Shown piece after piece: positions 14,352 to 53,575 of a stretch of 64,000 bases of DNA; the first letter of the stretch is position 1; every line of letters starts with the position of its first letter. The stretch lies in NCBI RefSeq assembly GCF_044324875.1, contig NZ_CP172185.1; one strand, written 5' to 3'. This DNA is from Escherichia coli. Lineage in GTDB: Bacteria; Pseudomonadota; Gammaproteobacteria; Enterobacterales; Enterobacteriaceae. The translations under genes and the position numbers were made by a program. The notes beneath the pieces were generated by a model that made no database searches, was not told the origin of the DNA, and saw nothing but the letters and a program-made list of their open reading frames with translations.

Positions 14352-14392
14352 TACAATAAGGAGATTTTTGAAAGGACTTTAACAAGCAGGAA

Positions 14393-14791
14393 TTATCTGG
14401 ATTTGTTAACGTCTTTCGTCTCCTCTGGCAGATCTTCATCAAACAACCTGCCCTGCATCCGATCCAGTTCTTCTTTTCTGACCCGCTTAACCACGCTGTA
14501 GACCCACTGAAGCGAAACACCAAACTTGCGGGCCAGTTCGTGGTGGTTGCGTCCGTTAAACTCCCTGAAGATTTCCCGGTCGCGCTGACTGACCTTCCAT
14601 ACCATGCCCATCGGGAAATAAACGTTTTGCCCGCCCCAGACCTGCATCATTCGGTTCGCGACGGCCTGACCAATCTGGTCGGCAATTGCGGGCTCAATAT
14701 CAATAATCTCGCGAACGGTCTCAGAGGTATGCTGTGCCAGCTCCACCAGGAGTTCCGGCCCTTTACTTCGAAACTGATTCAGGTCGCTCAT
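14393..14791 (-). CDS. mor: Mor-family middle/late transcription activator
   Basis: 132-aa ORF with the C-terminal segment FREFNGRNHHELARKFGVSLQWVYSVVKRVRK matching Mu Mor. Confidence 0.8.
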   Translation of the reverse strand: MSDLNQFRSKGPELLVELAQHTSETVREIIDIEPAIADQIGQAVANRMMQVWGGQNVYFPMGMVWKVSQRDREIFREFNGRNHHELARKFGVSLQWVYSVVKRVRKEELDRMQGRLFDEDLPEETKDVNKSR

Positions 14792-19420: not shown

Positions 19421-21190
19421 TCAGTTGCCGTTAACAATGCTGATAACGCTGCTGCGGGCCGGCGTGGTCAGCGTGGCCATGACTTCATCCAGTGCGGCTT
19501 CCGGTACGCCGTCCGGGTACTGTGCTGTTAACTGGCGGTAATGTTCCGGCGTCCAGGTCAGGCCGTCGGCGCTGAACTTATCGCGCAGGGCTTTCGCGGC
19601 CTCCACATGAGTCATGGGACGCTGTTCAGTGCGCGGTCCGCGTACGTCAGAGGCCTGACCACGCTTCGGTATACAGGCCGGAAGTGTGGCGTCATCAATA
19701 TGTTTATACGGGTCAAGCCGCCCGCCGAACGGCAGCGCCTTCGCCTTGCGTGCGGCAGCTGCATCTGCGGCGTTGTCTGTACCGGTGACCAGCGCTTCGG
19801 TTTCTTTTGCCGCCATCTGCGCCGGGGTTTCCGGCAGGGCTTTGTAACTTTCGCCAAATACCGCCGCGCCTTCAGCAAAGCCAAACTCGTTCTTTCTGAC
19901 CTCTTCGACCAGGAAGAACGTCTCGTGGCCGTCCTCACCGGTCAGAACCACCTGTGCCACATCGCTGCGCCACGGGTTACGGGTAATCATCAGTTTTTCA
20001 CCGACCAGTACGCCCGGTACCGTTGATACGTCAAATTCAGTGCCCCGGAACGAGACACGAAGTTTTGGCGTGACTTTGCGGAGTTCTGGTGCCGCCACAG
20101 CCAGTTCACGACATACCTCAACGGAAGGCGCTTTTTTCAGCTGCTCAGCAGTAATCTTCAGCCAGATATCCGTGCGGGTTTTACCGTGGCGGCTGTGAAC
20201 AGCCGTGGCGTTAAAGTGGCTGCGCCATTTCGCGGCCAGCGCGTTGAGTTCTTCCAGACTGTGAACCGGCCGGAACTTCAGACCCGGCTCCAGCTTGCGT
20301 TCGATAATGTCACGCGCCTTTTCCACCTGTCCGGTGGCGCGGGCGTTATGCGGCTTGTGCGCTATCAGGTCGATGCCCAGTGAGCGGCACATGTTTTTCG
20401 TCATACCCGCGGTGTTTGCCGAGCCGGGGTCGAGATAGAGTATTTTTGGCACGCCGTGCAGCACGTCTGCGCCGCCACGCTCCTGCATGGCGTTGATAAG
20501 CACAGAACACAGGTTCTCACCGGATTCCGCACCCGTCACATACTCAACGTAAATCCAGCCGCTGGCATGGTCGGTAATCTCGTAACTCCACACGCGGTCA
20601 CTGGCGATACGGGCAAGGTTAGCGGGCTTGTTTTTGTAGAATTTCGCGCTGTCCATCACCTGCAGCCCTTTATGTCCATTGCTCAGGTAGTAAAGCGTGC
20701 AGAGTGAGGCGTCAATCTGCCAGACATGATTGGGGTGCAGACTGGCCACTTCGGTATGCGGTGCAGGGGCATCCAGTTGTTCCGGGTGCAGGCCATAGTT
20801 ACGCAGGGCACGACTGATGGCATCTTCGGACAACGGGAAAAACTCACCGGTGGTTTCATCTGTTCTGCCTGCGGAGATAAAGCCGTTAGCCCGCAGGGTT
20901 TCCACTGCATCCGCGATGGAATAGAGACGCTTACCGTTCTTGCGGGTGGCCTCACGTAGTGTGGCAGATATCAGCGCGGCTTCGTCGCGGGTCAGGGTGC
21001 TGCGTCCGGCATCGGCGCGTTTTTTGCGTTTATCAGTCACAGAGACCTCCTTCAGCCTGCGCAGCAGAGTGGCGCGGGACATGCCAAGTTCAGCACAGGC
21101 AGCGTCGTATATTGCACCGCGTTTACCATGCCCCGCATTACGTGCCGCGCGGGCTGTTTCAACAAGTTTTTCAGTCAGTGCCGGGGTCAT
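19421..21190 (-). CDS. DDE transposase (Mu A-like function, rve-type catalytic core with N-terminal HTH)
   Basis: 589-aa ORF; HTH RATLLRRLKEV; HVWQIDASLC core; position upstream of MuB-like gene. Confidence 0.8.
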   Translation of the reverse strand: MTPALTEKLVETARAARNAGHGKRGAIYDAACAELGMSRATLLRRLKEVSVTDKRKKRADAGRSTLTRDEAALISATLREATRKNGKRLYSIADAVETLRANGFISAGRTDETTGEFFPLSEDAISRALRNYGLHPEQLDAPAPHTEVASLHPNHVWQIDASLCTLYYLSNGHKGLQVMDSAKFYKNKPANLARIASDRVWSYEITDHASGWIYVEYVTGAESGENLCSVLINAMQERGGADVLHGVPKILYLDPGSANTAGMTKNMCRSLGIDLIAHKPHNARATGQVEKARDIIERKLEPGLKFRPVHSLEELNALAAKWRSHFNATAVHSRHGKTRTDIWLKITAEQLKKAPSVEVCRELAVAAPELRKVTPKLRVSFRGTEFDVSTVPGVLVGEKLMITRNPWRSDVAQVVLTGEDGHETFFLVEEVRKNEFGFAEGAAVFGESYKALPETPAQMAAKETEALVTGTDNAADAAAARKAKALPFGGRLDPYKHIDDATLPACIPKRGQASDVRGPRTEQRPMTHVEAAKALRDKFSADGLTWTPEHYRQLTAQYPDGVPEAALDEVMATLTTPARSSVISIVNGN

Positions 21191-21523: not shown

Positions 21524-22440
21524 TACTGCATGCCCTCCGGTCGGTTGATTTCAGGCTCCGGTTCGGTCAGCCATGCGGGGACATCGTTACCCGATGGTGC
21601 GGCATCAAGGTCGAACGTCTCACGCAATGCATGAACACTGCGTTCAATCTGGCAGACCAGACCGGCCATGAAATCTCTGGGGGTATCAATCATGTTTTTA
21701 CTGCAGTATTCACACAGGGTTTCAAAGGCACCGGAGAGCCGGACGGCGATGGCAGATTCCGCCTCAACCGCTAATGCGGTCACTTCCGCCCGCAGCTTCT
21801 TCACCTCTTCATCAGGCTCAGGCGGTTGAATACGGGATTTCTTCTCCAGTTTTGTGGCCAGTTCGTTGATTTTTTCGTCCTTTCCGGCAAGCACCTGTTG
21901 CTGAGCTGCGTTAGTTTCGCGCGCTTCACGCAGGGCCTGGCGAAGTTCACGTACTGACATGCGATCAACATCATCAAGCGTCAGGCCGGCAACTGTGCCG
22001 CCGTCGGCCAGTTCGGCAAGGTCTTCATCGTCTTCAGCAACAAGTTCAAATAATTTTGCCTTACCCAAAAGCGACAACGTTGTCGCTTTTGGCTCTAGTT
22101 TTGGTGAAAGGTATTTCAAAGATGCTTTCATCATTCGTTGTGCTGCGCGCACGTGCAAACCAAGTTGTTCTTCTACAATTCCAACAAAGTCCCCGTGTGG
22201 CTCATTTTCTTTTAAGATGATCAGCCGTTTACCCGCTTCCAGCATAGATTCAGCACTCTGCGCCATATAAAAACGTGCTTCGTGAACGATGCGATCACGT
22301 TCATAAGGCAGTCCATCACCAAACTGCTGCATGATCTCCATGCGATGCTGTGTCATGGCATTCAGGCTGACGTTGAGATCATCCGACAGCGGTACCTCGG
22401 CGTTCAGTTCAGTGTTAACCGGTGATTTGGTGCGTCCCAT
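21523..22440 (-). CDS. hypothetical early protein (305 aa, acidic coiled-coil region)
   Basis: ORF between ner-like and transposase genes; no confident family assignment. Confidence 0.45.
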   Translation of the reverse strand: MGRTKSPVNTELNAEVPLSDDLNVSLNAMTQHRMEIMQQFGDGLPYERDRIVHEARFYMAQSAESMLEAGKRLIILKENEPHGDFVGIVEEQLGLHVRAAQRMMKASLKYLSPKLEPKATTLSLLGKAKLFELVAEDDEDLAELADGGTVAGLTLDDVDRMSVRELRQALREARETNAAQQQVLAGKDEKINELATKLEKKSRIQPPEPDEEVKKLRAEVTALAVEAESAIAVRLSGAFETLCEYCSKNMIDTPRDFMAGLVCQIERSVHALRETFDLDAAPSGNDVPAWLTEPEPEINRPEGMQ

Positions 22441-22450
22441 TGATTACTCC

Positions 22451-22759
22451 TTACAAACGACTACCTGAAATGACACGTTGGTTGATTTCGTTAATGCGAT
22501 CCTGTGCACGTGCCATCTCGTTACTGTGGGCCATGGCGATCTGCAGCAACTGGATGCCCGGTGCGAAACGCCCGTTTTCCAGTTTCAGGGCCAGTCCTTC
22601 TTCAATGAGGGTGTTGAGTGCCCGGTTGATGTTTGCCGGTGACTCGTGCAGTGCTGCCGCCAGTTCACCATTGGAAATACCGTTCAGGGCATGACCGCGC
22701 AGCGCTTTGAGTACCCGGAGGATGCGACTGCCGGAGCTTGAAACATTCGTCTTACTCAT
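22451..22759 (-). CDS. winged-helix DNA-binding protein (about 102 aa)
   Basis: HTH-like segment ILRVLKALRGHALNGISNGELAAAL; start at MSKT has the better SD spacing. Confidence 0.45.
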   Translation of the reverse strand: MSKTNVSSSGSRILRVLKALRGHALNGISNGELAAALHESPANINRALNTLIEEGLALKLENGRFAPGIQLLQIAMAHSNEMARAQDRINEINQRVISGSRL

Positions 22760-22811
22760 CTGCATACCTCTTTTGCGATATGTGATAACCTTTTACAAAG
22801 AATCAAAATAT

Positions 22812-23000
22812 TCAGGCTGCCTGAGCTGTTGATTTCAGCCCCAGTTTCACGGCGATTTCATGGGATTTACCGTAACGTGCTTTGCTCTGCCCATTGAGAA
22901 CGCGGTATACCTCATTGCGGTTGTAGCCGTTTTCTTCTGCCCAGCGGGTGAAAGTGATCCCGCGCTGGCGGAAGAGAGCTTTGACTTGTTCTGCAGTCAT
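22812..23000 (-). CDS. ner: Ner-like small DNA-binding protein (Cro-equivalent)
   Basis: 62-aa ORF with AAGGAGA SD, divergent from the repressor; Ner-like HTH pattern. Confidence 0.55.
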   Translation of the reverse strand: MTAEQVKALFRQRGITFTRWAEENGYNRNEVYRVLNGQSKARYGKSHEIAVKLGLKSTAQAA

Positions 23001-23100
23001 CGTTGTCTCCTTTGTTGATGCAATGATGTTTGCCTTATGTGTGATAGATTATGGTGCAGATTATCTCACCAGTCAACTTAAAGAGTGCAGAAAAACTCAC
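23001..23100. promoter_or_regulatory. divergent early control region between ner and repressor (candidate operators)
   Basis: 100-bp AT-rich spacer containing the direct repeat AGATTAT twice (GATAGATTATGGTGCAGATTATCTC). Confidence 0.35.
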
Positions 23101-23439
23101 ATGATCGGGTTACGTATTAAAGAAGAAAGAGAGCGTCTATCTCTTACACAGCAAGGGTTGGCTGATGCTATCGGTGTGGCAAAGAGAACTTTTATTGATT
23201 GGGAAAAAGATCGCACTTCTCCTACTGCAGTGCAGTTATCTGCACTATCAGAAATCGGTGTAGATGTTTTGTATGTAGTTACTGGGGTGCGGAGTCAGCC
23301 TGTTGTTGCACCTTATATGTCACAAGAAAAGAAAGAGTTAATGGATGCATTCGACGAGATGAGCCCCGAACAACGGAGGGCAATTCTTGAGGTCGGCAAA
23401 GTCTTCATTCAACCCAAACCAAGCAAACTCGCAGGCTGA
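23101..23439 (+). CDS. XRE-family HTH repressor (c-like)
   Basis: Internal start MIGLRIKEERERLSLTQQGLADAIGVAKRTFIDWEKDRTSP, a classic XRE HTH; divergent from ner. Confidence 0.6.
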   Translation: MIGLRIKEERERLSLTQQGLADAIGVAKRTFIDWEKDRTSPTAVQLSALSEIGVDVLYVVTGVRSQPVVAPYMSQEKKELMDAFDEMSPEQRRAILEVGKVFIQPKPSKLAG

Positions 23440-23525
23440 TTCTGACCTGGACAGAAAGGACAGGTGGTTGATCTGGATGCTTTCAGAAAACGCCGTCAGT
23501 AGCATGGCAGAAATCGGCGGGCTTA

Positions 23526-23548
23526 CCGGAAAGCACTGTACTTTCCGG
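23526..23548. terminator. bidirectional terminator between convergent repressor and dam genes
   Basis: Stem CCGGAAA / TTTCCGG with 9-nt loop followed by T-rich tract. Confidence 0.5.
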
Positions 23549-23557
23549 TTATGGCTT

Positions 23558-24322
23558 TTAGAAATTGCAGATCACCAGCTCACGGCGTGGAGTTGATTTG
23601 CCTGCCAGACTGTAGTTGATGTTCACTGTCTGTATGTTCAGTCCAGTGAACACCTCGCGCATCTGCGGGATGTCGTTCACCGAAATTATCATCTTTCCTC
23701 TGATGCACCGGGCCAGCTCTGCCAGCCGCGAGTAGTTCCCTTCAGGAAAATCCACACCATAGCCTTCTGTACCCAGATACGGCGGGTCACAGTAGAACAG
23801 CGTGTGCGGACGGTCATAGCGCTCAATGCACTGTTGCCAGTCCATGTGTTCTATCACCGTTCTGGAAAGCCGCAGGTGTGCCGCTGACAGTTCTTCCTCG
23901 ATACGCAGCAGGTTGAAGCGTGGCGGGGATGTGGTGGAGGTGCCGAAGCTGTGCTCTGCCACCTTGCCGCCAAACGCCTGCTTCTGGAGGTAGTAGAACC
24001 GTGCTGCACGCTGGATATCCGTCAGTGTTTCTGTCGGGGTGATCTGCAGCCATTTGTAGATCTGCCGGCTGACCAGCGCCCATTTGAACTGGCGGACAAA
24101 TTCTTCCAGATGATGTTTTACCACCCGATACAGATTTACCAGTTCACCATTGATATCGTTAATGACTTCGAGCTTACCAGGTGTCTTAAGAAAATAGAGC
24201 GCTGCTGCGCCGCAGAACGGCTCCACGTAACATTCATGCGCCGGAAACAGCGGCAGGATGTGTTTTGCCAGGCGACGTTTGCCACCAATCCATGGAACGA
24301 TGGGTAATGTCTGCATTTTCAT
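23558..24322 (-). CDS. Dam-type N6-adenine DNA methyltransferase (D12 class)
   Basis: 254-aa ORF with DPPY catalytic motif and N-terminal FCGAAALYF SAM-binding motif. Confidence 0.8.
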   Translation of the reverse strand: MKMQTLPIVPWIGGKRRLAKHILPLFPAHECYVEPFCGAAALYFLKTPGKLEVINDINGELVNLYRVVKHHLEEFVRQFKWALVSRQIYKWLQITPTETLTDIQRAARFYYLQKQAFGGKVAEHSFGTSTTSPPRFNLLRIEEELSAAHLRLSRTVIEHMDWQQCIERYDRPHTLFYCDPPYLGTEGYGVDFPEGNYSRLAELARCIRGKMIISVNDIPQMREVFTGLNIQTVNINYSLAGKSTPRRELVICNF

Positions 24323-24514
24323 AATCTGTAAGCCTTTTACAATTATTAAAAATATGGCAGGCTAGTCTGGTCTCGCGAGACTGACTGAACCCCGGTCGGC
24401 TCACAGCGCATTCCTGTGGGACGATGGCCAGCCCGGTGGGTCCGAAGCACCGGGCTGGTCGTTCTTTCATGATGCGGCAGGGATGAAGTGATTTCTGTTA
24501 ATGTGGTTTAGGGA

Positions 24515-24730
24515 TTATCCGGGGCGATTTTCTGACCTTATCTGGTCCAGGGCATAAGTGATCCCTTCTGCAAAAACAGAAGTATCAAACTGCTTTTGTA
24601 TTTCCTGAAAATGAACAGTGGCACGACAGACACTCAGTTCTCCGCGATGTAACCGGATAATATCTTCCAGAACATTGTTCACTGCTTCGGCACGGCGCTG
24701 ATGTTCTGTTAACGTTAATCGGGGATTCAT
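24515..24730 (-). CDS. hypothetical 71-aa protein upstream of dam
   Basis: ATG with AAGGAG SD 8 nt upstream; no recognisable motif. Confidence 0.5.
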   Translation of the reverse strand: MNPRLTLTEHQRRAEAVNNVLEDIIRLHRGELSVCRATVHFQEIQKQFDTSVFAEGITYALDQIRSENRPG

Positions 24731-25107
24731 GATGCACTCCTTAAATGATGATTTTTATGTACTCACCGGCAAAATATTCTGCCGATTACTGAACACGCAT
24801 CCGGCTCCTCAGGTTTTGATTTATTCTGGTTTTTTCGATATCCCGGACCAGGTTGATCACGACAGAAAAAGTGCCGGTATTTTATTGATACGCTGATATG
24901 GCTTCGGGATAACAGCTATATTCGTTACTCTCAGTTGCTGGCTGTGGGAGCGGCTGATGTCGTCCTCACGGAAAAAACGCTCTGTCTGCTCAATGCCATG
25001 CCGACCTTTCTGCAGCCCCGGCCCGTACCATTTAAAGAGTCACTTCTGGATGCAGTAAAAACCGGTGAAAATGCAGTCATCGCTGAATGCGTATCCCGGA
25101 TTATGCG

Positions 25108-25656
25108 TTACGTGTTTAATGAACGTAAGTGAGGTTTATCCGCTGTCTGCATAATCCCGATAGCCAGTGCGAGGGGAAGCAATTCCGGGGAAACTCTTTC
25201 AAACAGCGATTCCCATTCTCCTCTCGCCATCACTCTGTCCAGCCCGCCCTCCAGCTGCATTTCAGCAATCTTCCTGATTTCCCGGAACAACGCCGCTTTG
25301 ATCTCTTCATGCTCAGCTTTATTTTCCGGTGTCAGAATGTATTCGTCGAAGAACCGGGGAGGCTGGTTAACGGGGGGCATGTTCACCGGGATGTGTTCCT
25401 GTATCCCGTACTCCGGGGCTGAAAAACATTTTGTTGTCTGACCGGTGAGTTTGCGTAACACCTTCATGAGTTGCTCCTGAAGCAGCTCATTCGTCCGACA
25501 GATACGCTCGTCGTCCACAACTGCGGCATCGACAATGACGCTTTTTCCAAATTCCTTTTTCACCATCTCTTTTATACGCGTCAGAACGTAACTTTTACCG
25601 CTGCCTACAGGCCCGGACACTCTGACGGTGATGGTCGGCTTCGGTGTGACTGTCAT
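25108..25656 (-). CDS. small P-loop NTPase (about 182 aa), function unknown
   Basis: Start MTVTPKPT with AAGGAG SD; Walker A GPVGSGKS and hhhhDD Walker B-like VIVDAAVVDDE. Confidence 0.6.
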   Translation of the reverse strand: MTVTPKPTITVRVSGPVGSGKSYVLTRIKEMVKKEFGKSVIVDAAVVDDERICRTNELLQEQLMKVLRKLTGQTTKCFSAPEYGIQEHIPVNMPPVNQPPRFFDEYILTPENKAEHEEIKAALFREIRKIAEMQLEGGLDRVMARGEWESLFERVSPELLPLALAIGIMQTADKPHLRSLNT

Positions 25657-25725
25657 TCTGTATCTCCTTTGTGAGTGATCCAGCGTGTATTCTGCATACC
25701 CCGAACACGCCTCTCTCTTAACGCG

Positions 25726-25736
25726 CTTTAAAATCC
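25726..25736 (+). promoter_or_regulatory. late-promoter-like motif GCTTTAAAATC about 60 bp upstream of first late gene
   Basis: One of four related motifs at matching distances from late-operon starts. Confidence 0.35.
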
Positions 25737-25787
25737 TCCGCGCCACGCTTTTGCCATGCTGTCTCCACACAACAAGGAGACATTTTC

Positions 25788-26138
25788 ATGAAACCATTCA
25801 CTTCCCTTATCGTTGACGTACAAAAAACCCGCCTGCGTGGATGGCTTGTTGCGGCCGTGCTGCTGCTCCTCATCATCGCGCTGGTCTCACCCCAGCAGTT
25901 GCCGGTGGTGGTGTACAAGCTCTCTCTCATCTCCCTCGCCGCCGTGCTCGGCTACTGGCTGGACCGCTCACTCTTCCCGAAGGCCCGTCCGGGGCAGTAC
26001 CTGAAGCATGACGAGCGCCTCATGGCTGAGGGGCGCTGGCCCGTACAGACCGGCCTTCACCTGGTGTTTTCTGCTGCGTTAATCCGCCGTGCACTGATTG
26101 TTGCAGCTGTCTGTCTGGCTGTTGCGATGGGGCTTTAA
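25788..26138 (+). CDS. putative holin / lysis membrane protein
   Basis: 116-aa ORF with two or three TM segments immediately upstream of the endolysin. Confidence 0.5.
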   Translation: MKPFTSLIVDVQKTRLRGWLVAAVLLLLIIALVSPQQLPVVVYKLSLISLAAVLGYWLDRSLFPKARPGQYLKHDERLMAEGRWPVQTGLHLVFSAALIRRALIVAAVCLAVAMGL

Positions 26139-26140
26139 TC

Positions 26141-26875
26141 ATGAACTGGCCACAGAGCACCTGGATTGTATGCATGTCCCTGAAACTGGCTTTCGAAGCC
26201 TTTCTGGTCTTCATCAGAACCGAACGCCTGTCAGTCCGTGTCGGGACCTTTCTGGTTCATATGGCATGGGTATTCTTTGTCGCAATGTTGCTCTGGTGTG
26301 GCGGCTTCTTCAGTCAGGCCCGCGCAGCGCAGCCTCCGCAGGCTGCGCTGCAGTATCGCGATGATGTGATCCGTAATGCCCGGCTTGAATGGGGGCTGTC
26401 TGCGCCGGTGGCCGATTTCGCCGCGCAACTGCATCAGGAAAGCGGCTGGCGGACTGATGCGGTCTCGCCGGTGGGCGCTCAGGGGCTGGCGCAGTTTATG
26501 CCCGCCACCGCTGACTGGATAAGCCAGTTGATGCCGGCGTTGAGCAGTCGTGAGCCGTTTAATCCGGCATGGGCCATCCGGGCGCTGGTCAGCTATGACC
26601 GCTGGCTGTGGCAGCGCATCAGCGCCGCCAGTGACTGCGAGCGTATGGCCATGACACTGTCGGGCTATAACGGTGGTCTGGGTTGGGTACAACGGGACAG
26701 GCGGCTCGCATCACAGAAAGGTCTGGACAGCACCCGCTGGTTCGGACATGTCGCCACGGTGAATGCCGGACGCAATGCTGCCAGCTGGCGGGAGAACCGC
26801 CATTATCCGCAGCGCATCCTGCACGAACTGGCCCCCCGTTATCTGACATGGGGGGGCGGCAGCTGTGTGGACTAA
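26141..26875 (+). CDS. lytic transglycosylase endolysin (SLT domain), probable signal-anchor (SAR) type
   Basis: SLT catalytic region HQESGWR...GAQGLAQFMPATA; hydrophobic N-terminal segment. Confidence 0.75.
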   Translation: MNWPQSTWIVCMSLKLAFEAFLVFIRTERLSVRVGTFLVHMAWVFFVAMLLWCGGFFSQARAAQPPQAALQYRDDVIRNARLEWGLSAPVADFAAQLHQESGWRTDAVSPVGAQGLAQFMPATADWISQLMPALSSREPFNPAWAIRALVSYDRWLWQRISAASDCERMAMTLSGYNGGLGWVQRDRRLASQKGLDSTRWFGHVATVNAGRNAASWRENRHYPQRILHELAPRYLTWGGGSCVD

Positions 26876-27167
26876 CCTGCTAAAAAATCTGCCGTGGCGC
26901 AGTCTGCTGCTGGCAGTGCTCATAAATGCTTTTCTGATTGGACTTTATTACCTGGGCTACAAAAGTGCAAAATGGCATCTGAATCGATCGCAGTTTGGCA
27001 TTCGAATCGATCATGATTTGGCATCCATCTCCGATCACAGTTTGGCATCACAATCGATCACGATTTGGCATGCTTCCGATCATTGATTGGCATCCTGCCA
27101 GTCACTCCGGGAATTAACTCTTTTCACCACAGTCTCCATTGCCGTGTTTAAACCAGTGGAGACGTCA

Positions 27168-28733
27168 ATGTCCAGAAAGAGAAAATCCAGGAGCACTATG
27201 GAAACCTGTTTTAAGATCCTTCAGCTCAAGTTCGACAAGAAGCTGACTAACCGTTGTATCGGACTGACGTTACACATCAGCGCCTCAACCGTTTTTGAGG
27301 TTCTTGCCCGCTTCAAAGCCTCTTCTCTGTCATGGCCATTACCTGCTGATATATCCCATGACACGCTGGAGAAACTCATTTTTCCGCCCAAAGACACCTT
27401 TGCATCAGAGCTTGTAATGCCTGACATGTTGTACTTCGATACGGAAATGAGAAAACCAGGTGTGACGCGGCAACTGTTGTGGATGGAATACAAGGCACAG
27501 GCGGGTAACAAAGCGATGGGATACTCGCACTTCTGCCGTTGCTACCGGGAGTGGAAAAAAACGCGACGTCTCTCCATGCGCCAGGAGCATCGTGCCGGCG
27601 AAAAGCTTTTTATCGACTTCTGTGGTCCTACGGTTCCTGTTATTAATCCGGACACCGGTGAGATACGCCGCGTGGCAATCTTCGTGGCCGTAATGGGGGC
27701 GTCCAACTATACCTACGTTGAAGCGTGCGAAGGTCAGGACATGATGTCATGGTTAAATGCCCACAGCCGTTGCCTGACCTTCCTGGGCGGCGTACCGAAG
27801 CTGCTCATCCCCGATAACCTCAGAAGCGCAGTGAAAAAGGCCGATCGATATGAGCCTGTCATCAACGACAGTTATCAGGCACTGGCTGAGCACTATGGCA
27901 CGGTTATCATCCCGGCCCGACCACGCAAACCTAAAGATAAACCAAAAGCAGAAAACGGCGTCCTCATCGTTGAACGATGGCTTCTTGCCCGCATCCGTAA
28001 TGAAACCTTCCACACGCTCAGGGCGCTGAATGCGCGCCTTAGGGAGTTACTGACAGACATGAATAACCGGCCAATGAAGGGGTACGGCAATCAAACCCGT
28101 GCAGAACGCTTCCGCATACTGGATGCGCCAGCACTCTCTCCGCTGCCTCTGGCACCTTATGAATACACGGAATACAAAGCTGTGAAGGTTGGCCCTGACT
28201 ACCACGTTGAATATGCCCGTCACTGGTACTCCGTTCCACACGAACTGGTCGGTCAGCGTCTGTCACTGAAGGCGGGGCAGTCGGTGGTACAGCTCTGGCA
28301 CAAGGGGCAGTGTGTGGCGCAACATCCGCGCAGCACACATGAATATAAACACACAACCAATCCGCTTCACATGCCAGAGCGCCACCGGCAGCACGGGACA
28401 TGGACACCGGAACGCCTGATCGAGCAGGGAAAACGTACGGGCCCGTCCACAGGCCGGGTGGTTGAATCCATGCTGAAGGCAAAACCCCATCCGGAACTGG
28501 CTTATCGTGCAGTTCTGGGGCTGCTGGCACTTCAGAAAAAATACGGCCCGGAACGGCTGGAAAAGGCCTGTTACGTTGCCCTGCACTATAACGCCCCTGA
28601 CAGACGCTTTATCGACAATCTGCTGCGTCACCATCGGGAGAACCTGGAGCTTCCATTATCCCGCCAGGGCGAACAACATCCGGCATATGCTTCAGAGCAT
28701 GAAAACCTGCGTGGTCCGGGCTACTACCACTGA
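27168..28733 (+). CDS. istA: IS21-family transposase IstA
   Basis: N-terminal HTH plus DDE core (FIDFCGP ... IPDNLRS ... VERW); start uncertain (27087 TTG to 27198 ATG). Confidence 0.8.
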   Translation: MSRKRKSRSTMETCFKILQLKFDKKLTNRCIGLTLHISASTVFEVLARFKASSLSWPLPADISHDTLEKLIFPPKDTFASELVMPDMLYFDTEMRKPGVTRQLLWMEYKAQAGNKAMGYSHFCRCYREWKKTRRLSMRQEHRAGEKLFIDFCGPTVPVINPDTGEIRRVAIFVAVMGASNYTYVEACEGQDMMSWLNAHSRCLTFLGGVPKLLIPDNLRSAVKKADRYEPVINDSYQALAEHYGTVIIPARPRKPKDKPKAENGVLIVERWLLARIRNETFHTLRALNARLRELLTDMNNRPMKGYGNQTRAERFRILDAPALSPLPLAPYEYTEYKAVKVGPDYHVEYARHWYSVPHELVGQRLSLKAGQSVVQLWHKGQCVAQHPRSTHEYKHTTNPLHMPERHRQHGTWTPERLIEQGKRTGPSTGRVVESMLKAKPHPELAYRAVLGLLALQKKYGPERLEKACYVALHYNAPDRRFIDNLLRHHRENLELPLSRQGEQHPAYASEHENLRGPGYYH

Positions 28734-28749
28734 CAGAAGGAACAACAGT

Positions 28750-29505
28750 ATGAGTGATAACCTGTTAAACAAACTGACCCAACTGAAACTCCCGGCGATG
28801 GCCGGGAGCCTGATACGGCAGCGGGAAACGCCTCAGACCTACGACGAACTGTCGTTCGAGGAAAGGCTGACGCTGCTGGTTGATGACGAGCTTCTGAGCA
28901 GGGAAAACAGCCGTGTGGCACGGTTGAGAAAAAATGCCGGCCTGAAATACCAGGCAACACCGGAAGGGCTGCGCTATCCGGCCTCAAGAGGTCTGCGGGC
29001 TGAACAGATGAGAGAACTGCTGAACGGCCACTACATAACCCACAGGAAAAACCTGCTGATAACCGGTCCGACAGGATGTGGCAAGAGCTGGATAGCCAAT
29101 GCGCTGGGCGAACAGGCATGTCGACAGAAACACAGCGTCCGGTACTGTAGAACCGGGCGATTACTGGAACAACTGGCTCAGGGACGTGTTGATGGCAGCT
29201 GGCTGAAATATCTGAAACAGTTGCAAAAAATACAGGTTCTAATCCTGGACGATCTGGGGCTGGAACAGTTAAGTAACGCCCAGTGTAATGACCTTCTGGA
29301 GCTCATAGAGGATCGTTACGGACAAAGCAGCACGATAGTGGTAAGCCAGTTCCCGGTAGATAAATGGCATGGTCTGATGGAGAACCCAACAACAGCAGAT
29401 GCCATCCTGGACAGACTGGTACATAACTCACACCGAGTGGTCCTTCAGGGAGAGTCACTGAGGAAAAATCCCCCGGTAGTGGAAAGCAGCGAAAAAACGC
29501 GTTAA
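28750..29505 (+). CDS. istB: IS21-family helper ATPase IstB
   Basis: 251-aa ORF with Walker A GPTGCGKSWIA; ATG at 28750 a few bp after istA stop. Confidence 0.85.
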   Translation: MSDNLLNKLTQLKLPAMAGSLIRQRETPQTYDELSFEERLTLLVDDELLSRENSRVARLRKNAGLKYQATPEGLRYPASRGLRAEQMRELLNGHYITHRKNLLITGPTGCGKSWIANALGEQACRQKHSVRYCRTGRLLEQLAQGRVDGSWLKYLKQLQKIQVLILDDLGLEQLSNAQCNDLLELIEDRYGQSSTIVVSQFPVDKWHGLMENPTTADAILDRLVHNSHRVVLQGESLRKNPPVVESSEKTR

Positions 29506-48016: not shown

Positions 48017-48028
48017 GCTTCTTAAACG

Positions 48029-48040
48029 CCTTTAATATCA
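48029..48040 (+). promoter_or_regulatory. late-promoter-like motif CCTTTAATATCA upstream of baseplate genes
   Basis: Shared 11-mer; followed by hairpin GGGGGCA-ATAC-TGCCCCC at 48053-48070 abutting the ATG. Confidence 0.4.
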
Positions 48041-48070
48041 GCGTTCCCGCACGGGGGCAATACTGCCCCC

Positions 48071-48418
48071 ATGAAAACGACCTCAGTATTCTGGCAACCA
48101 GCCCTGCAGGCTCCCGGCGAAATTGTCCGGGGGCTGGATGATATCCGGCAGGCGATTCAAATTATCCTGCGGACTCCCCGCGGCAGCGACCCGCATCGCC
48201 CGGAGTTCGGCAGCAATCTGCATCTTTATATCGACTGGCCTGTAGACCGGGCCATTCCGCATGTGGTGCGCGAATCCGTCGATGCCATCCGGCGCTGGGA
48301 GCCCCGCTGCCAGCTTATGTCAGTTAAACCCGCCGTCGACGGCGAACATCTTACGCTCCGGGTGAGCTGGAAAGGCTCAGACGGACAGACCCGGACTCAG
48401 GAGCTGCTATGGCGCTGA
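48071..48418 (+). CDS. baseplate protein (gpW / gp25-like)
   Basis: 115-aa ORF; size and order. Confidence 0.6.
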   Translation: MKTTSVFWQPALQAPGEIVRGLDDIRQAIQIILRTPRGSDPHRPEFGSNLHLYIDWPVDRAIPHVVRESVDAIRRWEPRCQLMSVKPAVDGEHLTLRVSWKGSDGQTRTQELLWR

Positions 48419-51804: not shown

Positions 51805-52419
51805 TCAGCCGGCAAGCGCCAGTGGCGCTTCCGGCCAGCTGATTTCAGGTGCCTTGCTGATATCCAGTGCGTTCAGCTCGTCGATATAATCCAGCACGGC
51901 GTTCAGTTTTGCCGTTTCTTCTGGTTTCAGACTGCGACCTGCCCGCAGTTTGAGGTTGATGAGGTCGATGGACTTCATCGCCTGATCCACCCGTTCCTGG
52001 CGTTGCAGTCTGGCAACCTCCAGCTCTGCGGCTCGCTGCCGTTCAGTATCGGTTACCCACGCCTCACCGTTCCAGGTATCCCATGGCGTGGCCGGCTGTT
52101 TTGTGGTGGTGTCCGCCGGGTAATCACCCGGCTGGGTAATCTGAACGGGAGTACCGTTCTCCGTGCTGTATACCGTCTCGCCGCGGTGATCAGGCACATG
52201 TTCCCACCCGTTCAGCGTGGCAGTCCGGCAAACCACGTAACCCGAAATTGCCTCCGGCGGTGCATCGGCGCACGAATGTGCCGGAGTACCCACCCCAAGG
52301 GCGAGATACTCCACAGAGGATGAGGTGTATTCCCGGGTTTCCTCGTCATAGTGATATACAGTGATATCGCCCGCTACAGTGGCGATACCGTTTTCATCCA
52401 GAACTGCAGTGTTACTCAT
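51805..52419 (-). CDS. tail fibre assembly protein (Tfa/U-like), cognate to the alternative fibre tip
   Basis: 204-aa ORF of Tfa type downstream of the alternative fibre C-terminus on the minus strand. Confidence 0.7.
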   Translation of the reverse strand: MSNTAVLDENGIATVAGDITVYHYDEETREYTSSSVEYLALGVGTPAHSCADAPPEAISGYVVCRTATLNGWEHVPDHRGETVYSTENGTPVQITQPGDYPADTTTKQPATPWDTWNGEAWVTDTERQRAAELEVARLQRQERVDQAMKSIDLINLKLRAGRSLKPEETAKLNAVLDYIDELNALDISKAPEISWPEAPLALAG

Positions 52420-52901
52420 TAAACTGCCCTCACAATGTAATTAAGTGCAATGCTACGGGGTCTGACAGTGATACCCTTCGCATACCCGCTTCTGATAGAG
52501 GTCAGAATAGTAGCCTGCATACCATTGTCTGACATTGCCACGACAGGATCGCTGAATGTTGTCCCGTCCGGCATTTTAAAGCTGCCCTCACGAAGGTCTG
52601 TAATGGAATCTTCATTGTTGAATCCCATGCCGACTATCCCCGAGGTTCCCGTAGTGTCCTGGTTATAATAATCCAGCATTGCTGTTCTTAACAGCGTTGC
52701 CCCTTGTGCGGACAGCAACTTACGTCCTGTATCAACTTTGCGCCCGTCGTCCCATCCACGGATAAACTCACCGCGCAAATCGGGAAGACGGAGGGTCGGG
52801 TAGGCTCTGGCCAGAACAGGATATTGTTCTTTTGTAAAGGCGCGCCCGTCGCACTTTAACCAGCCTGCTGGCGGTGTGGCGGTGGGCCACGGAACAGGCA
52901 C
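52419..52901 (-). CDS. alternative tail fibre C-terminal cassette (promoterless in current orientation)
   Basis: Begins PVPWPTATPPAGWL..., paralogous to the plus-strand fibre tip, ends NYIVRAV; lies inside the invertible segment. Confidence 0.7.
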   Translation of the reverse strand: MPVPWPTATPPAGWLKCDGRAFTKEQYPVLARAYPTLRLPDLRGEFIRGWDDGRKVDTGRKLLSAQGATLLRTAMLDYYNQDTTGTSGIVGMGFNNEDSITDLREGSFKMPDGTTFSDPVVAMSDNGMQATILTSIRSGYAKGITVRPRSIALNYIVRAV

Positions 52902-53002
52902 ACCAACGGGTAGCGCCGAGCCTTCTCCTAAACCAACGTTTATCTCTCAAATCCTCCTCACATTATCTCAGTACTTTAACCACTCAAAAGGGAGTATTTT
53001 TA

Positions 53003-53575
53003 ATGCTGATTGGCTACATACGTGTGTCAACAAATGACCAAAACACAGATTTGCAACGCAATGCATTAATGTGCGCAGGATGTGAACAGATTTTTGAGGA
53101 CAAAATGAGCGGAACCAAGTCGGAACGACCAGGCCTGAAACGCGCTTTAAAGTGCCTTAAAAGAGGGGATACATTGGTGGTCTGGAAGCTGGATCGGTTG
53201 GGTAGAAGAATGAAACACCTCATTGCTCTCACAGAAGAGCTACGCGCAAAAGGTGTCAATTTTCGCAGTCTGACGGATTCAATCGATACCAGCACTCCGA
53301 TGGGAAGGTTCTTTTTTCATATGATGGGTGCACTGGCAGAAATGGAGCGTGAACTGATAGTTGAGCGCACGCTGGCAGGACTGGCTGCTGCGCGAGCACA
53401 AGGGAGAGTTGGAGGACGTCGCCCGAAACTGACGAAGGAGCAGCATGAGCAGATCGCAAGATTGCTCCAGAAAGGGTATGACAGAAAGCGGCTGGCAATT
53501 ATCTATGATATTGGACTGTCAACGATCTACCGCTATCACCCTGTTGGGACTGTCATAACGGAACCTGAAATGTAA
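53003..53575 (+). CDS. gin: Gin/Hin/Cin-family serine DNA invertase
   Basis: MLIGYIRVSTNDQNTDLQRNAL... closely matches Mu Gin; ATG at 53003 with AAAGGGAG SD. Confidence 0.9.
   Translation: MLIGYIRVSTNDQNTDLQRNALMCAGCEQIFEDKMSGTKSERPGLKRALKCLKRGDTLVVWKLDRLGRRMKHLIALTEELRAKGVNFRSLTDSIDTSTPMGRFFFHMMGALAEMERELIVERTLAGLAAARAQGRVGGRRPKLTKEQHEQIARLLQKGYDRKRLAIIYDIGLSTIYRYHPVGTVITEPEM

Follow-up and report, generated by a model that had tools for sequence, protein, structure and literature searches.

A predicted late adenine methylase behind a structured RNA leader in a composite accessory locus of a BcepMu-like Escherichia coli prophage

Mu-like prophages use adenine methylases instead of mom, and Hia5, Hin1523, and Nma1821 have been described as such alpha-class enzymes forming non-specific m6A (Drozdz et al. 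2012, PMC3299994). In E. coli EC958, prophage Phi2 encodes M.EcoMIV (EC958_1101), an orphan type II methylase of the D12 class, which was transcribed significantly below dam in LB, received no motif assignment in the EC958 methylome, and has no characterized homologue above 65% identity (Forde et al. 2015, PMC4659465). In this study, we analyzed a stretch of 64,000 nucleotides (nt) of E. coli DNA (NCBI RefSeq assembly GCF_044324875.1, contig NZ_CP172185.1), called the window in the following, and therein a locus with a methylase gene in a BcepMu-like transposable prophage. The three minus-strand open reading frames (ORFs) of 254, 71, and 182 amino acids (aa), which a first-pass annotation of the sequence had placed between the repressor gene and the first late gene, are present at this site and all match phage protein families; the helix-turn-helix repressor gene ends at 23439 and the holin gene follows on the other side (Table 1). 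Related loci are given with an L number.

The best-supported mechanism for this locus, with a probability of about 0.5, is a late, post-transcriptionally gated adenine methylase marking progeny DNA. The locus would be the leftward arm of the lysis (late) promoter region, and a Mor/C-type activator of the phage would turn on a unit of dyad promoter, leader, and methylase gene during lytic growth. Translation would be gated by pairing of the leader with the ribosome-binding site (RBS) of the methylase gene, and the enzyme would methylate progeny DNA before packaging, which would then resist restriction in the next host. Thereby, its role would parallel that of mom/com in Mu and of Hia5-type methylases in FluMu. 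Protection of phage DNA had already been offered by the first-pass annotation and is the role best supported by our analysis. Cargo would have been gained between promoter and leader by different lineages, namely a mosaic P-loop protein and an autonomous cassette of genes for a 71-aa and a 134-aa protein.

The methylase has the motif order EPFCGAAAL (FxGxG-like, S-adenosylmethionine binding), target-recognition region, and DPPY. It belongs to the Dam-family/D12 enzymes by a narrow pass of TIGR00571 (116.8; cutoff 114.85), stays below the cutoff of the EcoDam equivalog NF008152 (67; cutoff 441), and matches phrog_56 and the PADLOC model MTase_II at 1e-112. The closest solved structures are DpnM (6.5e-17) and EcoDam (3.5e-14), both matched over their full length. 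With 98.4% aa identity to the copy on the EC958 chromosome and the same flanking genes there, the window methylase is, as judged from sequence, a close homologue of M.EcoMIV, and we see no essential difference between the two D12-class enzymes on BcepMu-like prophages. As M.EcoMIV is without an assigned motif and not detectably active in the lysogen (PMC4659465), its name adds no function to the window enzyme.

Identities of 79–86% to the window methylase were obtained for the copies of Klebsiella phage KP12, Serratia, and other relatives, and of 60–70% for homologues from phages of Burkholderia and Stenotrophomonas. In comparison with L003, the window gene has 40 synonymous and 3 non-synonymous codon differences, which argues for strong purifying selection on the predicted enzyme; its neighbours evolve fast (21:21 and 3:4). 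Two relatives carry damaged copies: a methylase pseudogene with an internal stop is found right behind the late-promoter dyad in L006 (3235-3999), and in L005 (3842-4250), which has no annotated methylase gene, nothing is left beyond the leader and the initial ~100 nt of the gene.

With E. coli Dam, T4 Dam, and DpnM, the enzyme has the fold family and the motifs in common, but not the base contacts of EcoDam. All five residues reportedly contacting the bases in EcoDam are changed (K9->P, N120->G, L122->K, R124->A, P134->S) in pairwise as well as MAFFT alignments, and the replacements are identical in six family members. Also, the hairpin motif [FY]NGLxRxN....FNVP[FY]GRY of EcoDam and DpnM is replaced by the family-invariant FGGKVAEHSFGTSTTSPPRF. 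Therefore, the base-contact residues of a GATC-specific Dam are lacking and GATC specificity is not to be assumed; of the earlier Dam-type assignment, family membership stands and specificity does not. Like the Hia5-type enzymes, the window methylase combines the alpha-class order (FxGxG, target-recognition domain, DPPY) and a Mu-like prophage with a target-recognition region diverged from GATC enzymes; it is much closer to DpnM and EcoDam (E 1e-17 and 1e-14) than published for Hia5, which was compared by its description in PMC3299994. M.EcoGI and M.EcoGII were dismissed as relatives, being beta-class enzymes of 349 aa with a different architecture (PMC5778455).

The 192-bp spacer 5′ of the methylase gene holds a conserved structured leader. 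This leader can be aligned across E. coli, Klebsiella, Serratia, and two further lineages, and it is kept wherever the methylase is present and also in L005. When the proposed structure was applied to 11 leader sequences, 95.7% of the cells were paired, and controls with slid partners reached 27–47%. The helix covering the Shine-Dalgarno (SD) region (Table 1) was paired in 10/10 sequences, with three one-sided changes which all yielded G.U; three compensatory pairs are located elsewhere in the leader, outside this helix. The CUGUG segment takes part in both hairpin 2 and the SD helix, so that only one of these can form at a time. Minimum free energy folds gave the SD-paired state for the leaders of the window (z = -2.5) and L009 (z = -5.3), and the hairpin-2 state for Serratia (z = -3.4). 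No match at E <= 1 was obtained for 22000-27200 with the Rfam 15 covariance models. An interpretation of the hairpin at 24428-24458 as a relic junction or a plus-strand terminator was ruled out; L005 keeps the leader together with ~100 nt of the methylase gene as a deletion remnant.

Strong SD sequences had been ascribed to all three minus-strand genes. This was confirmed for the 71-aa and the 182-aa genes, each with AAGGAG 7 nt 5′ of the start codon (ATG in the case of the 182-aa gene), and not for the methylase gene, which has only AAAGG at a distance of ~11 nt and predicted to be base-paired. In its predicted layout, the unit would resemble mom/com of Mu, as a DNA-modification gene of a transposable phage lies behind a putative promoter dependent on a Mor/C-type activator and has an RNA leader which would occlude the start region. 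The components differ: searches of PHROGs, Pfam, and NCBIfam gave no Mom or Com family match among the proteins of the window locus, Mom acts by acetamidation and the window enzyme is predicted to methylate, and Com is a zinc-finger protein, whereas the 71-aa protein, which many relatives lack, contains a single Cys.

The control region between the holin gene and the P-loop gene contains a near-perfect dyad at 25718-25731 with a -10-like hexamer CATGCT (25755-25760) starting 30.5 bp right of the dyad center on the holin side, and a mirrored minus-strand hexamer CAGAAT (25694-25689) starting 30.5 bp left of the center. Dyad, right hexamer, and a left hexamer CAnnAT are found at fixed spacing in 11 relatives including ones without the P-loop gene, and in L006 the leader directly abuts the dyad and CATGAT occupies the mirrored -10 position. 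A gene for a Mor/C-type late activator is present at the extreme left of the prophage. We infer that 25657-25787 is a bidirectional late promoter with a leftward arm that would ultimately serve the methylase gene. A second dyad, TTAAACGCCTTTAA at 48022-48035, has a -10-like AATACT at +30.5 bp, is without a mirrored hexamer, and lies just 5′ of an ORF starting at 48071; 48022-48064 is probably another Mor/C-dependent late promoter. Another dyad-like sequence with 2 mismatches (14367-14382) is located just past the stop codon of the Mor-type gene, beside a host-type terminator. The dyad-like match at 53137-53162 was dismissed as a promoter because of its position inside the serine-invertase coding sequence.

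Table 1. Features of the analyzed locus and associated prophage genes; positions refer to the window.
Feature	Position	Strand	Basis or remark
Mor/C-type late activator gene	14393-14791	-	phrog_532, 2e-45; extreme left of prophage
Terminator-like hairpin	23525-23549	+	3′ of repressor gene; 8 nt past methylase stop
D12-class (alpha, Dam-family) N6-adenine DNA methyltransferase, 254 aa, DPPY	23558-24322	-	phrog_56, TIGR00571
Conserved structured 5′ leader, ~150 nt	24323-24472	-	cross-genus alignments, pair counts, folds
SD helix (predicted), 9 bp	CUGUGAGCC (24398-24406) pairs GGCUUACAG (24326-24334)	-	GGCUUACAG covers SD region just 5′ of AUG
Leader hairpin 2	24402-24418	-	invariant CACAG...CUGUG stem, 7-nt hypervariable loop
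Leader hairpin 1	24428-24458	-	two pairs with compensatory double changes (AU<->UA, GC<->CG)
71-aa helical protein	24515-24730	-	phrog_4490; small partner of cassette
134-aa protein, pseudogene	24729-25132	+	phrog_2266, 2.6e-44; pieces 24729-24896 and 24935-25132
182-aa mosaic protein, Walker A GPVGSGKS	25108-25656	-	phrog_3787
Divergent control region holin/P-loop gene, 131 bp	25657-25787		dyad TTAAcGCGCtTTAA and two -10-like hexamers
Holin, first late/lysis gene	25788-26138	+	phrog_1528, 1e-50
SLT endolysin	26141-26875		rightward late genes, after holin

Three features of the region had been overlooked in the first-pass annotation, namely the structured leader in the 192-bp spacer, a loss of 65 codons in the P-loop allele of the window, and the plus-strand gene of the 134-aa protein. 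Searches of Pfam, NCBIfam, PHROGs, and PADLOC with all proteins returned no functional family for the 71-aa, 134-aa, and P-loop proteins, in agreement with the earlier statement that the 71-aa and P-loop proteins have no assignable function.

The Walker A motif of the 182-aa protein was confirmed, with its G and K invariant or near-invariant in 42–45 homologues. A full P-loop NTPase core with a Walker B strand and further strands was not found and no significant family or fold match was obtained. Profile searches against the sequences of the PDB gave similarity at the level of Walker A only (PilT, CMP kinase, ABC proteins, designed P-loop prototypes); thus, an identity as nucleotide kinase, which had been considered as the alternative to an accessory function, is unsupported. 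The family N-termini do not support the GTG at 25770 as start codon of the gene. The common form of the protein has 247 aa, and the window allele is without 65 codons (87 + 108 nt, in frame). The loss takes the second half of a conserved N-terminal domain of ~75 aa including W..P and residues of a beta-strand, so that the window protein consists of the first half of this domain and a C-terminal helical module. The window allele shares 99% identity with a cluster of 58 sequences and 84% with a second allele of 182 aa.

A word-indexed search with the P-loop protein found close E. coli relatives only, and an exhaustive search gave 55 matches which are alike only in the first ~75 residues (MTxTLNPTITITVSGPTGSGKS...IIDAPD..E[KR]..W..P..T.f.L.E.). 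Behind this mini P-loop domain, the C-termini are mosaic with very different lengths and content, and stand-alone forms have 73–90 aa; in Serratia, only the C-terminal module is present. In 28/28 BcepMu-like loci, the gene is divergent to the holin gene with its start ~130 bp away and encodes 140–364 aa; in most of these loci it is followed by the methylase gene, with L094-L099 among the exceptions. For the 247-aa form, AlphaFold2 reached a pLDDT (predicted local distance difference test score) of 45 without alignment, and with 45 sequences ~90 in the N-terminal domain and <60 in the rest. Counts of 21 synonymous and 21 non-synonymous substitutions indicate a relaxed or diversifying evolution of the gene. 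The data support a description of the protein as a putative constant phosphate-binding handle with swappable C-terminal modules. In viral contigs, relatives were searched with a scan based on the alignment of the N-terminal domain only. Stand-alone or short (70–155 aa) versions of the mini P-loop domain are also encoded on phage-like contigs that are unrelated and reach 141 kb (L104-L111, L011, L012); some of these versions are located near DUF7941 genes, with neither the methylase gene nor BcepMu-type lysis genes nearby.

The 71-aa gene forms a head-to-head cassette with the gene of the 134-aa protein. The latter is intact between the 71-aa and P-loop genes in L003, phage PhiKM, and EC958, and it fills what appeared as a 377-bp gap in the window, where absence of a single C at 24863 splits the frame into pieces of 55 aa and 65 aa. 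The start codons of the two genes overlap as the palindrome CATG in 57/58 loci as scored (43 distinct variants), the sole exception, L068, being a scripted start choice upstream of the real start. Therefore, the promoter and SD of each gene must be located within the other gene, and the 5′ ends of the mRNAs must be complementary. The small ORF is intact in 58/58 cassette loci. Besides its copy in the window, the large gene is also disrupted in L007, L077, and L078, and in L034; L007 has a 325-bp internal deletion.

For the 71-aa protein, we found close E. coli relatives and in addition a 73-aa homologue (~30% identity) in Serratia, whose partner is a phrog_2266 protein of 139 aa with 52% identity to the E. 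coli form. In the P2-like phages Midge and ST147-VIM1phi7.1, a 143-aa phrog_2266 protein with 30% identity is accompanied by an unrelated 63–64-aa protein of phrog_2454. The label DUF2513 of the Serratia homologue in UniRef was not confirmed, as no member has a Pfam match, and the GenBank note describing the Midge 143-aa homologue as T7 gp5.5/5.7-like was rejected with hhalign probabilities of 0.1% and 1.8%. The pattern GYIxY..V.LTEKxLxxLN would make the 134-aa protein winged-helix-like in sequence, for which no supporting family was found in Pfam, NCBIfam, and PADLOC. Its region is nearly 100% identical between prophages whose flanks are 80–95% identical (L001, L003, L008), which suggests a recent segment exchange or a constraint at the nucleotide level.

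The CATG cassette is also common at the accessory end of P2-like genomes (L022, 336-957; L023, 3293-3917; L037-L076), either beside DinI-like genes or in the stretch from the portal gene to the end of the genome; this end is presumably where tin and old lie. Phages P2 and 186 have face-to-face promoter switches (C/Cox and CI/Apl). The cassette is similar in consisting of two small divergent genes with promoters that must face each other, and in its occurrence in P2-like genomes, but differs by the CATG start overlap without any intergenic region. No homology of the cassette proteins to C, Cox, Tin, or Old was found.

Taken together, the locus is a composite and not one module. Its conserved core consists of a predicted dyad promoter, the leader, and the methylase gene. 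The P-loop gene and the 71-aa/134-aa cassette were inserted between the first two elements in individual lineages. That relatives carry different cargo at this site, as the first-pass annotation had proposed to check, is borne out: BcepMu has gp18-20 and no methylase, KP12 and L005 have a DUF2441-type gene, L006 has the methylase gene only, and Serratia a different set. These arrangements bear on the idea that the P-loop protein, the 71-aa protein, and the methylase form one three-component, NTPase-assisted modification or restriction-like system. Their genes are adjacent on the same strand, and the methylase gene follows the P-loop gene in many relatives (L009, L014, L100, L103). However, the methylase occurs without the P-loop and 71-aa genes in L006 and KP12, and the P-loop gene without the methylase in L094-L099 and L101; L009 and L014 lack the 71-aa gene, whose constant partner is the 134-aa gene and not the methylase gene; Serratia has nothing but the C-terminal module of the P-loop protein; and the ratios of synonymous to non-synonymous changes are strongly unlike (40:3 for the methylase gene, 21:21 and 3:4 for the others). 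We therefore regard a joint three-component system as very improbable.

A lysogenic-conversion or defence island, expressed from the resting prophage and protecting the host through superinfection exclusion, through abortive infection, or epigenetically through the methylase, is less remote than a joint system, and still unlikely. The slot is hypervariable like a moron hotspot, the phrog_2266 cassette recurs in the accessory end of P2-like genomes, the repeated inactivation of the large cassette gene next to an intact small partner is a pattern known from toxic effectors, and an arms race is suggested by the combination of a constant P-loop domain with C-termini that vary. On the other hand, none of the three small proteins belongs to a defence family in PADLOC, Pfam, or NCBIfam. 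With PADLOC-DB v2, only generic MTase_II and orphan-MTase models were matched by the methylase, the 71-aa and 134-aa proteins were unmatched, and matches to SngB, HerA, and mad8 at 4e-4 to 5e-3 were confined to the P-loop and correspond to Walker-A-level noise. The genes appear to lie behind a late-type promoter and not to form an autonomous promoter-terminator unit; the EC958 homologue is nearly silent in the lysogen, far below dam (PMC4659465). Expression from the lysogen as a moron is not supported by these transcription data, and the promoter geometry points to late expression. What remains of the moron or defence island of the first-pass annotation is a variable accessory slot; the parts of the presumed insulated three-gene module occur independently, and the locus represents an accessory region that is common and partly known, not a new defence system. 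The supposed bidirectional terminator also did not hold, as the T-run beside the hairpin at 23525-23549 is on the plus strand only; this hairpin is therefore assigned to the repressor gene as its terminator and is not clearly bidirectional.

Somewhat less unlikely, and in our view still doubtful, is the explanation that the small genes of the window prophage are mostly decaying remnants, idle and held by sequence inertia. It is in line with the frameshift in the 134-aa gene, the 65-codon loss in the P-loop gene, an IS21-family insertion sequence right after the endolysin gene, the relaxed ratios of 21:21 and 3:4, and methylase pseudogenes or deletions in other relatives. As the 134-aa gene is frameshifted and half of the P-loop domain is lost, only the methylase unit and the 71-aa gene look intact in the window. 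Against decay of the whole set, the 182-aa architecture has persisted in two alleles which are 84% identical, the 71-aa ORF is intact in all 58 loci, and the methylase gene is clearly under selection. Furthermore, decay describes the state of the window copy and not the biology of the family, and it is compatible with a late, gated methylase.

Several points weigh against the proposal of a late methylase gated by its leader. The SD helix shows no double compensatory change and is nearly invariant in sequence, so its conservation could reflect something other than SD pairing, and the 11 leader sequences represent two or three clades only, which leaves few covariation events. The 71-aa and P-loop proteins would not be required for an opening of the leader, both being absent from L006 and KP12. 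The leftward -10 elements (CAnnAT) are weak, a sigma-70 scan of 23500-25800 called no minus-strand promoter, and the sole clean terminator was on the plus strand; a missed call is as expected for an activator-dependent promoter. Finally, mom is located at the right end of Mu and the window methylase gene at the early/late junction.

The host element of the locus is of the Bcepmuvirus type, its layout matches that of BcepMu, and the nearest phage record is Escherichia phage PhiKM, classed as Bcepmuvirus. The earlier comparison with the canonical Mu gene set was accordingly imprecise, and it was right in that none of the three genes has a core function of Mu or BcepMu. A leftward early operon includes an rve-type transposase gene at 19421-21190. 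Directly 3′ of the endolysin gene, an IS21-family element occupies 27087-29505, with an IstA-like ORF of 548 aa (27087-28733) and an IstB-like ORF to 29505, the latter carrying a Walker A motif; relatives have an Rz-like or lipoprotein gene at this position. With IS21 in the lysis cassette, the window prophage is probably defective and lysis-defective. Its left end is probably near 14.36–14.39 kb. A Gin/Hin-type serine invertase gene at 52874-53575 (...GDTLVVWKLDRLGR...) adjoins two minus-strand ORFs (51805-52901); together (51805-53575), they resemble an invertible segment for tail fibres located at the right prophage end.

DNA matching 23300-26200 was found in 635/5426 complete E. coli genomes, and the holin-endolysin part is carried by the same 635 genomes; the part 24323-25770 was matched in 555 genomes. 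Among the matches listed, 11 records agree completely (100%) with the whole query; an identity of at least 99% is reached by 14 records, and of 90–95% by 466.

The value of the window copy itself is lowered by damage in two of its four genes and by disruption of the prophage by an insertion sequence. The CATG cassette and the 75-aa mini P-loop domain represent small uncharacterized phage families with an unusually constant architecture, and the leader is a concrete candidate for post-transcriptional control of a phage methylase. These three and the non-Dam recognition loop may be undescribed, no literature search having been aimed at them. As a tentative and rather doubtful proposal, M.EcoMIV-type enzymes would be a family of non-GATC or relaxed adenine methylases with a com-independent, RBS-sequestering leader analogous to the control of mom, and the CATG cassette would be a new two-gene switch or exclusion system based on 5′ ends that overlap fully. 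About one in nine complete E. coli genomes of our collection carries an M.EcoMIV-type methylase, and the prophage type includes that of EC958, the reference strain of the pandemic ST131, in whose methylome of 2015 the methylase was among those without a motif. If the enzyme is non-GATC or relaxed and produced in the lytic cycle only, this would explain why methylome studies miss it, and a widespread transposable phage of E. coli would carry a broad anti-restriction device.

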